Below are positions 22,625 to 55,676 of a stretch of 64,000 nt of DNA, piece after piece. The notes below the pieces were generated by a model. That model did no database searches and was not told the origin of the DNA. It was given only the letters and a program-made list of their open reading frames with translations. Where the stretch lies: positions 14,136,001-14,200,000 of the forward strand of contig OX597821.1 of NCBI GenBank assembly GCA_951406725.2, read 5' to 3'. The stretch comes from Octopus vulgaris (Eukaryota). Positions within the stretch are counted from its first letter, which is position 1. Each line of letters begins with the position of its first letter. Both the position numbers and the translations under genes were made by a program.

Positions 22625-23257
22625 ATATTGGTTTTCAATTTTGGCATGGAACCAACAAGTTCTGGAGAGGTGGCTAAGTCAATTACATTGACCCCAATGT
22701 TCAACTGGTACTTATTTTATCATTTCCAAAAGGATGAAATGCAAAGTTGATTTTGGTGGAATCAACTCTAAATACTTATAAAACTTATCTACCACTGCTA
22801 TAATATCGTGACTGCTGACTCAACTGAATTCTCATTGGATTATATCCTTTATATTCTTTTTTGTTTTTTACTTGTGTCATTAGACTGTGGCCATGCTGGA
22901 GCACCGCCTTGAGGAATATTAGTTGAACTAGTTGACCTCTATAGTTATTTTCTTTTCAAATCTGGTACTTATTCTATCAATCTATTTTGTTGAGCTGCTA
23001 AGTTAATGGATGTAAACACACCAACACCAGTTGTCAAGTGGTTATGGGGCATAAACACAGACCCAAACACACACACACGTACACACACGGTGAACTTCTG
23101 TCAGTTTCTGTGTAGCAAACCCACTTATAAGGCTTTAGTCAGCCAGAGGCTATAGAAGAAGACACTTGTCCAAAGTGTTGCTCAGATTGTAAAGATGGGT
23201 GAAATGCTTCTAAGCATTTTGCCCAGCATGCTAATGATTCTGCCAGCTTGTTGCCTT
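22625..23257 (-). mobile_element. SINE family B split by a ~418-bp templated insertion
   Basis: Core 22625-22762 and head 23180-23257 flank a copy of 19344-19754. Confidence 0.75.
22760..23177 (+). repeat. Direct duplicate of 19344-19754 (unique flank plus partial SINE A)
   Basis: Near-identical including ~100 bp of non-SINE sequence atcaactctaaatacttataaaac... Confidence 0.92.
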
Positions 23258-23394
23258 GAGACAACTGTTGTTATCACTAGGCCTAACTCATCGTAAAGTC
23301 AATACCACCATGACTGATATCCAATCTACAGTGGAGAAGGCTAGCCACTGGATTTGGTTAAAAAAAGACGATGAGTGATGGCTAGACGTATATT

Positions 23395-23544
23395 GAGTTC
23401 TTCATAACCAGCTGATCTAGCAAGCGGGGCCTAATAGTGAGGGGGGCTGGTGCGCATTGATGCCGTTGAGAGGTAGGCCCCGAAACGGCGCGCATTCTCT
23501 CCTGATGACCCCATACACTTGCTAGCTTCAGGTATACAGAGCTT
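23395..23544 (+). ncRNA. Candidate structured RNA: hammerhead-like core in permuted, pseudoknotted arrangement
   Basis: Pairs CTAGCAAG/CTTGCTAG, GGGGCCTA/TAGGCCCC, GTGCGC/GCGCAT, GCCG/CGGC, GAGAG/CTCTC, GGGG/CCCC, plus core GCCG-TT-GAGAG, GAAA-CGGC, CTCTC-CTGATGA. Confidence 0.55.
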
Positions 23545-23774
23545 TTAACTGGCAGCACTTGCATGTGCAAGTTGTTTGCAAGACATATATTGATTTAAAA
23601 TTTTAGTGCAAGACCAATACCTCACTGCCATAGACACAAATATAATATTAAAATATGGAGCCTATTAGTATGGTGGGTTAAAGCACTTTTGCTAAGTTAT
23701 TTCAACTGAGTGGTACCATTTATTTAGAATACCAATGCTTATTTTATCTGGATGAAAGCAGAACAAAGTTCATA

Positions 23775-23963
23775 TAGGTACAGGCATGGTTCAGTTGTTA
23801 AGAAGAAGTGGCTGTGTGGTAAATAGCTTGCTTACCAGCCACATGGTTCCGGGTTCAGTCCCACTGCATGGCATCTTGGGCAAGTGTCTTTTACTATAGC
23901 CTTGGGCCCACCAAAGCCTTGTGAGTGGATTAGGTAGATGGAAACTGAAAGAAGTCCTTCGTA

Positions 23964-24016
<53 letters not shown>

Positions 24017-24576
24017 ATGTATGTGTTTGTGTGTCTGTGTTTGCCCTGAACATCAGTTGGCAACCATGGTGGTGTGTTTATGTCCCCGTAACTTAGTGGT
24101 TCGGCAAAAGAGACCGATAGAATAAGTACTAGGCTTCCAAAGAGTAAGTCCTGGGGTTGATTTGCTCGACTAAAGGTGGTGCTCCAGCATGGCCGCAGTC
24201 AAATGACTGAAACAAATAAAAGAGTAAAAGAGAAGTATTTTCAGTTCCATTCCTACAGTGCTGCCTTGGGCAAGTCTTCTCCTATAGCCCTGGGCTGATC
24301 AATACCTTGTGAGTGAGTCTGGTTGACAGAAGCTCTATGGAAGTCCATCATATGTGTGCGTGTGTTCATGTTAGTGTCTGTCTCCTCTATCTATCACTTG
24401 GCAACTAATGCTAGTTTGTTAACATCTGCATAACTTAGTAGTTTAGCAAAATAATCCCATAAAAAGTATCTGATTAAAAAAAACCAAAATAAGTATCGAG
24501 AACAATTTGTGTAACCAAACTCTTCAAGGTGGTGCCCCAGTATGGTCTCAGTCCTGTAACTGAAACATGTAAAAGA
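23775..24576 (+). mobile_element. Old SINE A host copy interrupted by a younger SINE A
   Basis: Diverged head at 23775-23804 continues at 24233 through ccttgggcaagt to tail actgaaacatgtaaaaga. Confidence 0.7.
23805..24232 (+). mobile_element. SINE family A, young nested copy
   Basis: Full colinear match; agaag at both junctions. Confidence 0.92.
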
Positions 24577-29425: not shown

Positions 29426-30393
29426 TTAGCCACTGGCGTCAGCTGATACTACATTGTCTTTTGGATCATCAGAATTTTTTTCAATATCATTAATTAAATT
29501 GTCGAGAGGATAGTCTCCATTTTGAGCTAACGTCAAAGAAGTCATCTTTTCGGTCATATAGTCCGCACATTTGTCACCATATTTATCAATGTCCATATGG
29601 TTATCACCTTCATTGGATGGGGATGACCTTGACGTTGGCTGTTCAATGAGACTAATATCTGAGGCTGATTGGTCAACAGAATTTGTACCTTGATAGCTTT
29701 CATCATTATCCATATTGTCCGAGGGGCTTGTGTCCTGTTGCCAAAGCAACTGTTGCTCTTTATTGTCCAAGTCTTTCCAGCACTTAAGTTTCTCTAGGCT
29801 AGCTGCACTGTCACTGAATTCCAGTTCTTCTCCTTCCCGTTCTTCAGAAGTGTTGCTCTGGGTGTCACTGTCTGGAGAATCCAATTCATCTGTTGGGCCG
29901 GTAGGTGAAGGGGTAGGGGTGGAAGAAATAGCCATGGCACCAGACTCCTCGTCCAAGTCGATGCTTGGACAGATTACTTTAATCGGTGGAGACGTTACCA
30001 TGGCTGATAGGATGGTTGGGTTGGCAGTTTCCAATTGTTGCTGTTGCAGTTGATGGTTTTGGTTTTGGTGATGGTGGTGGTGGTGGTGGAACTGATGTTG
30101 GTTGTTATAAAGTTCGTTATTACTGTGATTATTGAATGTTTGATAGTTGTTGACAATAGTCACAGAGTCCATGATATTTTTGGGACGACACGTCTGGGAA
30201 CATAGAGTTTTTTGATCCCCGGCGAAATTTTCAAGAAGAGTTTCAGTCTCTTCTTTATTTAAAGCATCTTTTTTCAGTATCGATTTTTTTTTCAAAGTAG
30301 CAGGAGAATCTGAAATGATGGTTGGTGTAGCTCTCTTTACTGAGGGTGACTGCTCTGAGTAGGAATCAGAGGAGGAGTTATCTTTGATTTTAT
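29426..30393 (-). CDS. Last coding exon of an unidentified gene; ~320 aa Ser/Asp/Glu/Gln/His-rich, likely disordered region with KKKSILKK (SILK-like motif)
   Basis: 340-codon non-microsatellite ORF with raised GC; acceptor tttgtttttattgtag|AT at 30394 (phase 1); stop TAA at 29426-29428; donor aatg|gtaagt at 29389. Confidence 0.8.
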
Positions 30394-30861
30394 CTACAAT
30401 AAAAACAAATCGAAAACAAACCATTAAATACATTTCTAATAAAAACATGAAATGTTATGAATAAGCTAAAAATAGACAACATGGTCTTCAAAAACTGAAT
30501 ATGAAAGATTAACAAATATAAAAAGAAAATTACTTTCAGAGTATAACAATAAAATAAAAGTTTCATTTTGATAGAATTATCAACCTTATATAAAGATAGA
30601 TATTTATAAATGTTAGGGTGATGGTTAACTTACTTCCAATTTAAAACCTATTCATGATAATCTTAAAGCAAGCCTAATGAATATGTAAACATCTAATGGA
30701 CATTACAATAAAATTGCAGTAGCTGAGTTAATTCAGTTCTATAAATAGAATTGTTTATAACACTATATACAATTTGCTGTTCCGTTCTGATATTTCAATA
30801 CTTTTTCTCTTTTTCTCTTACACGCACACACTACATACACTGTATACATGTGTGTGTGTGT

Positions 30862-37197: not shown

Positions 37198-37611
37198 TAC
37201 TCTTTTACTCTTTTACTTGTTTCAGTCATTTGACTGCGGCCATGCTGGAGCACCGCCTTTAATTGAGCAACTCGACATCGGTACTTATTCTTTTGTAAAC
37301 CCAGTACTTATTCTATCGGTCTCTTTTGCCGAACCGCTAAGTAACGGGGACATAAACACACCAGCATCGGTTGTCAAGCAATGCTAGTGGGACAAACACA
37401 GACACACAAACACACAGACACACATATATATATATATATACATATATACGACAGGCTTCTTTCAGTTTCTGTCTACCAAATCCACTCACAAGGCTTTGGT
37501 CGGCCCGAGGCTATAGTAGAAGACACTTGCCCAAGGTGCCACGCAGTGGGACTGAACCCGGAACCATGCGGTTGGTAAACAAGCTACTTACCACACAGCC
37601 ACTCCTGCGCC
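37198..37611 (-). mobile_element. SINE family A, young
   Basis: Full-length, CpGs retained. Confidence 0.93.
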
Positions 37612-38091
37612 TATGTTTATTTATTCATATTGTTTCTAATTAATCATGCATTATCCAATAGTGTCAGGATTTTGATGATGATATTGTTTAATTTTAGAAT
37701 GGCATTGAAGGTTATGTGTGAGAGATCTGACTGGTTTGGCTATGAAACAGGTAAAATATTTGTGCTGGATATGGCTGGTTTAAATGCTCAAGGGCTAAGG
37801 AAATGGGATGGCAGTCAATTTAGCAGATGCACAGGGGAGCCAAAATGTATGCTATGCTACTGCTGTGTTATTTGTTTGCAATGCTCTGTGAAAGCATGTC
37901 CAGACTGTTTGTTGAACTTTAGACTAGGGGAAGTATTTTATTGCTTGGAAACAGGGAAGAGATGGCAACAAGAAGAGTATCTGGCTGTAAAATCTCTGCT
38001 TCCAAAAAGTTATCTGAACCATGAAAGAAAGGAAAAAAAGTGAATGCTAAAATGCTGATGATGAATTCTAAGAATTGTAGAGTTGCATGAT

Positions 38092-40544: not shown

Positions 40545-40951
40545 CTCTTTTACTCTTTTACTTGTTACAGTCATTTGACTGCGGCCATGCTGGAGCATCG
40601 CCTTTAGTCGAGCAAATTGACCCCAGGATTTCTTCTTTGTAAACCCAGTACTTATTCCATCGGTCTCTTTTGCTGAACCGCTAAGTTACGTGGACGTAAA
40701 CACACCAGCATCAGTTGTCAAGCGATGTTGGGGGGACAAACACAGACACACAAACACACACACACAAACATATATATATACATATATACGACGAGATTCT
40801 TTCAGTTTCCGTCTACCAAATCCACTCACAAAGCTTTGGTCGGCCCGAGGCTATAGAAGAAGACACTTGCCCAAGGTGCCATGCAGTGAGACTGAACCCA
40901 GAACCATGTGGTTTGTAAGCAAGCTACTTACGACACAGCCACTCCTATGTC
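40545..40951 (-). mobile_element. SINE family A
   Basis: Full-length match. Confidence 0.92.
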
Positions 40952-41139
40952 TATGATACTCAAAAATGAAGTGCCATGCACAGGTACAAAACACTTATGT
41001 ATGTGTATATGTATGTCAAGAATGAGAAATGAGTGCTCAATATGTGTTGTAGAGGATATTCTTATTATTGAAACTGAAGCTAAGAGTTTCTCTTGAGGCA
41101 TATGAATGGCAGATTGCAGTGGTATATGAAACTTGAGTT

Positions 41140-48745: not shown

Positions 48746-48993
48746 CCCTTTAGCTCTTTTCTTTTACTCTCTTTTACTTGTTTCAGTAATTTGACTGTGG
48801 CCATACTGGAGCACCGTCTTTAGTCGAGCAAATCGATCCCAGGACTTATTCTTTGTAAGCCCAGTACTTATTCTATCAGTCTCTTTTGCCGAACTGCTAA
48901 GTTACAGGTACGTAAACACAGCAGCATCGGTTGTCAAGCGATGTTGGGGGGACAAACACAGGCACACAAACATATACACATACATATATATAT

Positions 48994-49052
<59 letters not shown>

Positions 49053-49415
49053 TACGATGGACTTCTTTCAGTTTCCATCAGCCAAATCCACTCACAATGC
49101 TTTGGTTGTCCCGAGGCTATAGAAGAAGACACTTGCCCAAGATGCCATGCAGTGGGACTGAACCCGGAACCATGTAGTTCATAAGCAAGCTACTTACCAC
49201 ACAGCCACTCTTCTTAACCAAATGTAATTCTTATACATTGTTTTGAATTAATCACATACCTTTTGAATTAATCACATACCTTTTGAATTAATCTTGTACC
49301 TTCAAGATTTCAATGAAGTGTTTGTATAATTTTAAGGTAGGTATGAGAAGATGGATCCGGTCAGTTTTAACATAAAATATTTAGGCCAGATATGGCCGGA
49401 TTAAATACTAAACGG
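48746..49415. mobile_element. piggyBac-type MITE interrupted by SINE A
   Basis: ccctttagc start, actaaacgg-ttaa end; body matches 61380-61600; internal 20-bp repeat (about three copies) at 49241-49300. Confidence 0.7.
48755..49211 (-). mobile_element. SINE family A
   Basis: Full-length match. Confidence 0.92.
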
Positions 49416-55244: not shown

Positions 55245-55407
55245 TGTAAGAGTGGCTGTGTGGTAAGTAGCTTTCTTACCAACCACATGGTTCTGGGTTC
55301 ACTCCCACTGCGTGGCACCTTGGGCAAGTGTCTTCTACTATAGCCTCAGGTCGACCAAAGCCTTGTAAGTGGATTTGGTAGATGGAAACTGAAAGAAGAC
55401 CGTCGTA

Positions 55408-55468
<61 letters not shown>

Positions 55469-55676
55469 GTATATGTTTATGTGTCTGTATTTGTCCCTCC
55501 AACATTGCTTGACAACCGATGCTGGTGTGTTTACGTCCCTGTAAATTAGTGGTTCGGCAAAAGAGACCAATAGAATAAGTACGAGACTTCCAAAGAATAA
55601 GTCCTGAGGTCGATTTGCTCGACTAAATGCGGTGCTCCAGCATGGCCACAGTCACATGACTGAAACAAGTAAAGAG
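55245..55676 (+). mobile_element. SINE family A
   Basis: Full-length match. Confidence 0.92.

Follow-up and report, generated by a model that had tools for sequence, protein, structure and literature searches.

A split hammerhead-like core in the 3' UTR of an RLE-type retrotransposon of Octopus vulgaris and its possible role in copying through circular RNA

A GC-rich island lies at positions 23395 to 23544 of the window, a 64,000-nucleotide stretch of Octopus vulgaris contig OX597821.1. The first-pass annotation read it as a hammerhead core with two pseudoknots and a strand order matching none of types I, II and III. What is this island, is its fold conserved, and what might a hammerhead of this order do? 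All strands named in that annotation are present where it placed them, and the cut that it predicted after 23467 agrees with the register of the core.

As judged from its sequence, the island belongs to a non-LTR retrotransposon of the RLE (restriction-like endonuclease) type, present in many copies, and forms its 3' UTR. The window carries a 330-bp, 5'-truncated and decayed copy (23257-23587, plus strand) of a 3737-bp unit. A first look at the 2.8-Gb genome (227 contigs) gave 1971 candidate copies; 40 of these were scored, and 40 of 40 had 94-100% identity. The copies shared a common 3' end without a poly(A) tail, and their 5' truncation was variable. Insertions were spread across most chromosomes with unrelated flanks, several of them in microsatellites. 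Such mostly non-target-specific insertion is a trait of the HERO clade. Neither a target-site duplication nor a poly(A) tail was found at the window copy. A crude search of 30 copies detected a clear target-site duplication in one (L009) plus one microsatellite match; two copies gave no readout.

The full unit contains a single ORF of 1088 aa, counted from the first Met, with a match to RVT_1. Its best PDB matches were R2 proteins. A zinc knuckle and a PD..D/E endonuclease motif were identified in the ORF by eye, and no Pfam match for RLE was found in it. The element thereby has the features of RLE non-LTR elements, namely one ORF with RT, zinc knuckle and PD..D/E (knuckle and RLE by eye) and 5'-truncated copies with a common 3' end. 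We take it to be HERO-like, a name assigned from the C-terminal motif. Many copies had intact ORFs. Longer copies extend into the ORF, which terminates at TGA 23394-96, and the upstream CTAGCCA/TGGCTAG hairpin noted earlier sits within the coding end of the element.

Compared with the intact copy L009, the window copy had 13 substitutions and one 3-nt deletion. The lesions affected hairpin H, stem II (C>T at 23448) and the triplet (GUC>GUU), and they created a premature stop at 23376-78. The window copy is a decayed passenger and is itself probably inactive or weak. The GUU triplet of the first-pass annotation is in register; it is a decayed GUC, with C in 30/31 and 24/26 copies picked without the window query. 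CpGs are indeed retained, as that annotation remarked, because the copy is young (~95% identity to its paralogues), and CpG decay has already occurred at 23376, 23448 and 23467. Elsewhere in the window, a 342-aa open stretch (29426-30454, minus strand) is probably a host-gene exon, to which the element copy would be antisense. Another abundant short repeat, presumably SINE-like, was found at 23791-24300, 37356-37643, 40621-40956, 48795-49189 and 55338-55651.

Table 1. Features of the retrotransposon copy and of the proposed fold in the window
Feature	Position	Strand	Basis
RLE-type retrotransposon copy, 5'-truncated	23257..23587	+	alignment to paralogues
End of RT-RLE ORF; stop TGA 23394-96; premature stop 23376-78 in window copy	23257..23396	+	
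Outer helix P, 5' strand; pairs with 23518-25; prolongs helix E across an internal loop	23417..23424	+	
Helix E, 5' strand GGGG; pairs with CCCC 23509-12 right after A9	23426..23429	+	covariation
Hairpin H; abuts E and G10.1 without an unpaired base	23430..23442	+	
Stem II, 5' strand, displaced upstream; G23443 = G10.1; pairs with 23476-81 (pseudoknot)	23443..23448	+	
Helix B, 5' strand; pairs with 23490-96	23449..23455	+	
6-nt bulge separating B from stem III	23456..23461	+	
Stem III, 5' strand (23462-65) and NUH triplet; predicted cut between 23467 and 23468	23462..23467	+	
Stem I, 5' strand; pairs with 23496-501 (pseudoknot); 2-nt linker, then stem II	23468..23473	+	
Stem II, 3' strand; GAAA 23482-85 (G12-A15.1); stem III, 3' strand 23486-89	23476..23489	+	
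B, 3' strand; stem I, 3' strand; CUGAUGA 23502-08 (C3-A9); E, 3' strand 23509-12	23490..23512	+	
Remaining 3' UTR: small hairpin (broken at 23530 and 23538 in window copy), palindromic hairpin near 23559-72	23526..23587	+	

The wiring order of the fold was E, H, II5', B, III5'-NUH, I5', II3'-GAAA, III3', B', I3'-CUGANGA and E' (Table 1). Stems I and II form the two pseudoknots. Hairpin H had 6 bp in intact copies and 3 bp in the window copy (C>A at 23433 and the 3-nt deletion). In many relatives, a longer continuous E took the place of outer helix P. A kink-turn-like GA/GA motif, by the k-turn consensus, replaced the bulge between B and stem III in 13 of 26 representatives. The fixed, tail-less 3' end lies ~115-121 nt downstream of the predicted cut.

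The partners of the two G-runs had been assigned the other way round in the first-pass annotation, with the first run in stem II and the second paired with CCCC. The two pairings were compared in six aligned sequences from the closest lineage, with 500 shuffles each. In the original pairs, 72% of cells were paired and no change was double-sided, and 500/500 shuffles reached their covariation score. The swapped pairing with hairpin H had 92% paired cells and 7 pairs with double-sided changes, and 0/500 shuffles reached it. Covariation supported CCCC (23509-12) with GGGG (23426-29), and GGCCCC with GGGGCY (23443-48). The eighth pair of the original assignment exists solely via A23433, a change private to the window copy.

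Nested folding was modestly unusual: the z score was -1.86 for the window copy (8 of 200 shuffles folded as well) and -0.57 for an intact paralogue. The case against chance is made by homologues. The protein search found 45 homologues. Alignment of C-terminal protein parts retrieved 74 related loci, mostly with 37-57% identity. A descriptor that demands only the hammerhead core and stems I and III, with H17 imposed as not G, matched 29 of the 74 loci in 19 clusters, all in the sense orientation and 3' of the ORF. Dinucleotide shuffles gave a mean of 0.18 matches (maximum 1), and the reverse strand gave 0. No descriptor match was found in the other 45 of the 74 loci; 6 of the 74 had <150 nt after the match, and some of the missed loci were degenerate. 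In a group of ~11 loci with a different tail, the descriptor detected no core, and visual inspection of 600 nt in three of them showed none. This related lineage (L111, L112, L114-L116, L118-L120, L122, L125 and L126) has a long GC-rich 3' UTR and may use another structure.

In all 29 relatives with a match, the bases after CUGANGA formed only 0-2 bp with the strand preceding GAAA. A9 is thus not joined directly to stem II, as the first-pass annotation had seen. A G-first, 4-6 bp partner for stem II was present 19-25 nt before U16 in 29/29; local shuffling gave such a partner with 8% chance, for a range chosen after data inspection. We compiled 25 representatives (18 of the 19 clusters, the truncated L090 being dropped, two extra members, four near-misses found by eye, and L009), for which the partners of II, E, H and B were picked by best pairing. 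All six helices (E, H, II, B, III and I) varied in pair type. The junction A9-E/H-G10.1 had zero gap in 20 of 25, G10.1-Y11.1 was kept in 24 of 25, and N7 was free (U in 13, C in 6, G in 5 and A in 1). The linker between stems I and II was 1-9 nt long.

A plain MAFFT alignment of 20 relatives was 90.7% paired with 97 double-sided changes, and slid controls were 31-50% paired. None of 500 shuffles reached it on four of five measures, and 23/500 did on the number of pairs with a double-sided change; these shuffle tests are inflated by relatedness among the sequences. Helix B was 94% paired, with double-sided changes in 3 of 5 pairs. Stem II was partly misaligned in alignment A4 (71% paired), and the whole-motif MAFFT alignment A3 was left out of the counts, with E, H and II misaligned. 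C3-G8 was seen as U-A twice and as U-G once in the 20-relative alignment, a covariation known from natural hammerheads (PMC3088659, as far as the part of that source available goes). Core positions were invariant while helix sequences turned over completely. CUGANGA and GAAA were kept among the homologues, with compensatory changes in all six helices. A real and conserved six-helix fold around a hammerhead core is nearly certain. A conformational switch, also raised there, is possible; the ViennaRNA pairing of the core varied among relatives, in a program blind to pseudoknots.

Is this fold a hammerhead? CUGANGA, GAAA and NUH were conserved (H as not G was set by the descriptor). Stems I, II and III were in register with the core and covaried, and helix B would provide the tertiary contact between stems I and II. 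A9 and G10.1 were not joined, either directly or with up to 1-2 inserted nt. The order was not a circular permutation of blocks C, G and S without core pseudoknots, as in types I, II and III. It was S-G-C, with the short linker and interaction helix of type SGC and without an intact block C. The RNA therefore appears hammerhead-like in each feature that can be checked in a sequence, yet outside types I-III and SGC.

Non-circular permutations, type SGC and CSG, have already been published, and Eckert et al. (2023) validated type-SGC hammerheads, including HRIMA-1 and variants (PMC10085705). In the part of that paper available, CUGANGA with its adjacent stem strands was assumed to be uninterruptible, and no insertions of >1-2 nt between A9 and G10.1 were known to the authors. 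The present RNA shares with type SGC the order of cleavage site, GAAA and CUGANGA, the short linker between stems I and II, an identical core, two pseudoknots, and an interaction helix (here B) that links the other sides of stems I and II (PMC10085705). Unlike type SGC, its stem II strand lies upstream of the cleavage site and not directly after CUGANGA (block C), with helices E and H as a clamp over the gap between A9 and G10.1. It can be drawn as the SGC ring in which block C is closed onto block S and the opening is moved to A9/G10.1. SGC hammerheads are described in the same part of the paper as almost only metatranscriptomic, with none in genomes of known organisms, whereas the present RNA lies in animal retrotransposon DNA. 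The claim of a hammerhead order outside types I, II and III thus held, and what the first-pass annotation missed were hairpin H, the retrotransposon context and these published permutations.

Rfam gave no match at the gathering threshold in the window; at an E-value threshold, 23000-23900 gave only one chance CRISPR match (E 1.2), away from the island. No tRNA or tmRNA was found by scanning. A minus-strand ribozyme was rejected, with an unremarkable fold and 0 descriptor matches on the minus strand of the window and on reverse strands. Twister, HDV-like, pistol, snoRNA and Pol III RNA readings, judged by eye, were dropped given the ORF context and covariation. A literature search outside subscription journals, Repbase Reports and paper supplements found no account of the split-core wiring, and no ribozyme or circular intermediate described for HERO.

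Genomic copies carry traces of their template. Thirty copies were chosen by their 5' UTR from the 40 scored of 58 candidates. Twenty-six of the 30 ran head-to-tail into their own tail without a fixed start: 20 extended past the predicted cut and 6 started between the cut and the joint, three of these at +94/+95. Of the remaining four, one began at the joint and 3 within the UTR. In several full units, a truncated piece of the unit's own tail lay in front, and the joint was identical. This head-to-tail junction was uniform, and there was no indel at the predicted cut in 31+26 alignments. Neither a cut-site scar nor cleavage-product ends were seen in the genomic copies (31+26 alignments; 30 copies). 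The template was therefore continuous across the joint and the cut, and so either circular or a multimer left uncut. Without such continuity, a monomer with both ends cut could not be copied, because copying starts ~120 nt from its 5' end. Uniform head-to-tail copies can also arise by read-through of a tandem master without cutting.

Deleted forms were also found. L194 (907-2354) was an internally deleted, non-autonomous copy, just over one unit long, with short terminal redundancy. Run X1, which we guess to be RNA, contained a different deleted form as a closed contig of 1283 nt, at depth 76 vs 0-49 where it was absent. Its deletion joint was in 0 of 30 genomic copies (30 of 79 candidates) and was not among the matches listed for two runs that are probably DNA. 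A tandem in DNA could also account for the closed contig.

Several further observations concern the arrangement of copies. L163, L168 and L169 (the L194 locus) start at the loop of the palindromic hairpin in the tail, 26-27 nt short of the joint; such starts may mark an RT stall on return to its own start. The 5' UTR of full units (L071:1450-1550) contains about five short hairpins with a GAAAGA loop after the head-to-tail joint. These were also present in L082, L085, L096, L102, L104 and L108, with similar ones in distant relatives, and are possibly a protein-binding or cap-independent translation element. A head-to-tail ORF downstream of the motif was found in L082, the only case in 24 relatives, many of whose contigs were short. 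L072 and L186 each had two element copies close together and inverted, L186 with an internal inversion, as in Penelope-like insertions. Searches of viral contigs gave 0 and 2 weak loci. Three loci came from prokaryote genomes, two of them with the motif, probably by contamination or chance; in L149 (930-1045) and L150 (4995-5105), the motif and an RLE fragment lie in bacterial MAG contigs, probably binned-in animal DNA.

We propose the following mechanism. E and H would stack coaxially, so that A9 and G10.1 meet at a nick as if bonded. Such a two-helix clamp is plausible because a single unpaired base at the 5' end of stem II, the step in question, is accepted in natural hammerheads (PMC4209133). 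Helix B would stand in for the loop contact of stems I and II, as in type SGC, and the bulge or kink-turn would bend stem III against B. Intact copies are likely to self-cleave, a catalysis predicted from the core. A transcript spanning two tails would be cut twice to give a 3737-nt monomer, whose ends would stay tethered by E, B, II and III; this would favor their ligation, carried out by an RtcB-like ligase or the ribozyme itself. Starting ~120 nt downstream of the ligated joint, the RT-RLE protein would then circle more than once and stop at random. A point against this scheme is that a ribozyme cutting its sole template must be held off or reversed. That the cut RNA is rejoined into a circle serving as template is fairly probable. 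We hold the whole explanation (a decayed 3' UTR copy, a split hammerhead core, intact copies that cut, and circles that template copying) with moderate confidence. That a widespread animal LINE-type clade copies itself via circular RNA made by a coaxially clamped hammerhead broken at A9/G10.1 is favored by a little.

An active ribozyme might instead serve processing or silencing, by trimming read-through transcripts or by limiting expression; the more-than-unit copies would then stem from tandem masters read through linearly without cutting, with RT initiating internally. Copies do cross the cut site without a scar, as an uncut template predicts, and tandem masters exist. However, a cutter that destroys its template would have to persist over deep divergence, and the deleted form L194 and the closed contig fit circles more simply. 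We consider this account unlikely.

Template recognition suggests another role. R2 uses a structured 3' UTR for it, and the present fold occupies the place of such structures in non-LTR elements. A scaffold without catalysis, derived from a hammerhead or resembling one and bound by the RT-RLE protein for template choice, would also agree with the genomic copies, none of the 30 showing cleavage-product ends, and with the missing A9-G10.1 bond, insertions of >1-2 nt there being not known in the available part of PMC10085705. What such a scaffold leaves unexplained is the core, which stayed invariant through the complete turnover of its helices, with a free N7, C3-G8/U3-A8 covariation and G10.1-C11.1; it seems improbable to us.

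Reverse transcriptase is reportedly able to jump between templates in R2. Jumping between linear RNAs with ends defined by the ribozyme could make head-to-tail copies, and the enzyme family is related, but variable joints would be expected, whereas the joint was uniform without added bases at the cut; this is very improbable. The original assignment of the G-runs, or dimerization that yields a canonical stem II, is the least credible: both G-runs pair either way in the window copy alone, but the original pairs lack covariation, and a dimer cannot supply a canonical stem II because complementarity was ≤2 bp in 29/29 relatives.

If the circle-based explanation is true, a hammerhead core can be built from four separate strands, against the published assumption of uninterruptible blocks, and there is a topology beyond the six thought possible. 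Descriptor searches would then have overlooked a ribozyme class in animal genomes. R2-related retrotransposons would gain a Penelope-like, circle-based life cycle with rolling-circle target-primed reverse transcription, and the long-proposed role of hammerheads in retroelements would become testable in a compact autonomous element. An RT-RLE protein starting inside circular RNA would bear on gene-insertion tools, and ribozyme switches would gain A9/G10.1 as a new site for insertions.

Other retroelements offer partial parallels, taken here from the available parts of the sources. In Penelope-like elements and retrozymes, a hammerhead near the element end and partial head-to-tail tandems also occur, and a circular template with more-than-unit reverse transcription has been proposed (PMC4209133; 10.64898/2026.07.22.740005; PMC6765202). 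Their hammerheads are type I or III or minimal/dimeric, in telomerase-related elements with GIY-YIG or without an ORF, whereas the element described here has an RT-RLE ORF of the non-LTR kind and a monomeric, rewired core. Naiad Penelope-like elements, a different retroelement class, have halves of a hammerhead core in their 3' UTR that fit no descriptor (Craig et al. 2021, PMC8557442). R2 and non-LTR elements with HDV-like ribozymes share with the present element the RT-RLE family and a self-cleaving, transcript-processing RNA, which is predicted here (PMC13580325; PMC4209133). The 5' ribozyme of R2 frees a linear RNA from rRNA, and insertion is site-specific; unlike R2, the present element has its hammerhead in the 3' UTR, dispersed copies and no fixed 5' end. 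With the HERO clade, whose name is applied here from a C-terminal motif, it shares an RT, a C-terminal zinc knuckle and RLE, and largely non-specific insertion (PMC4640811).
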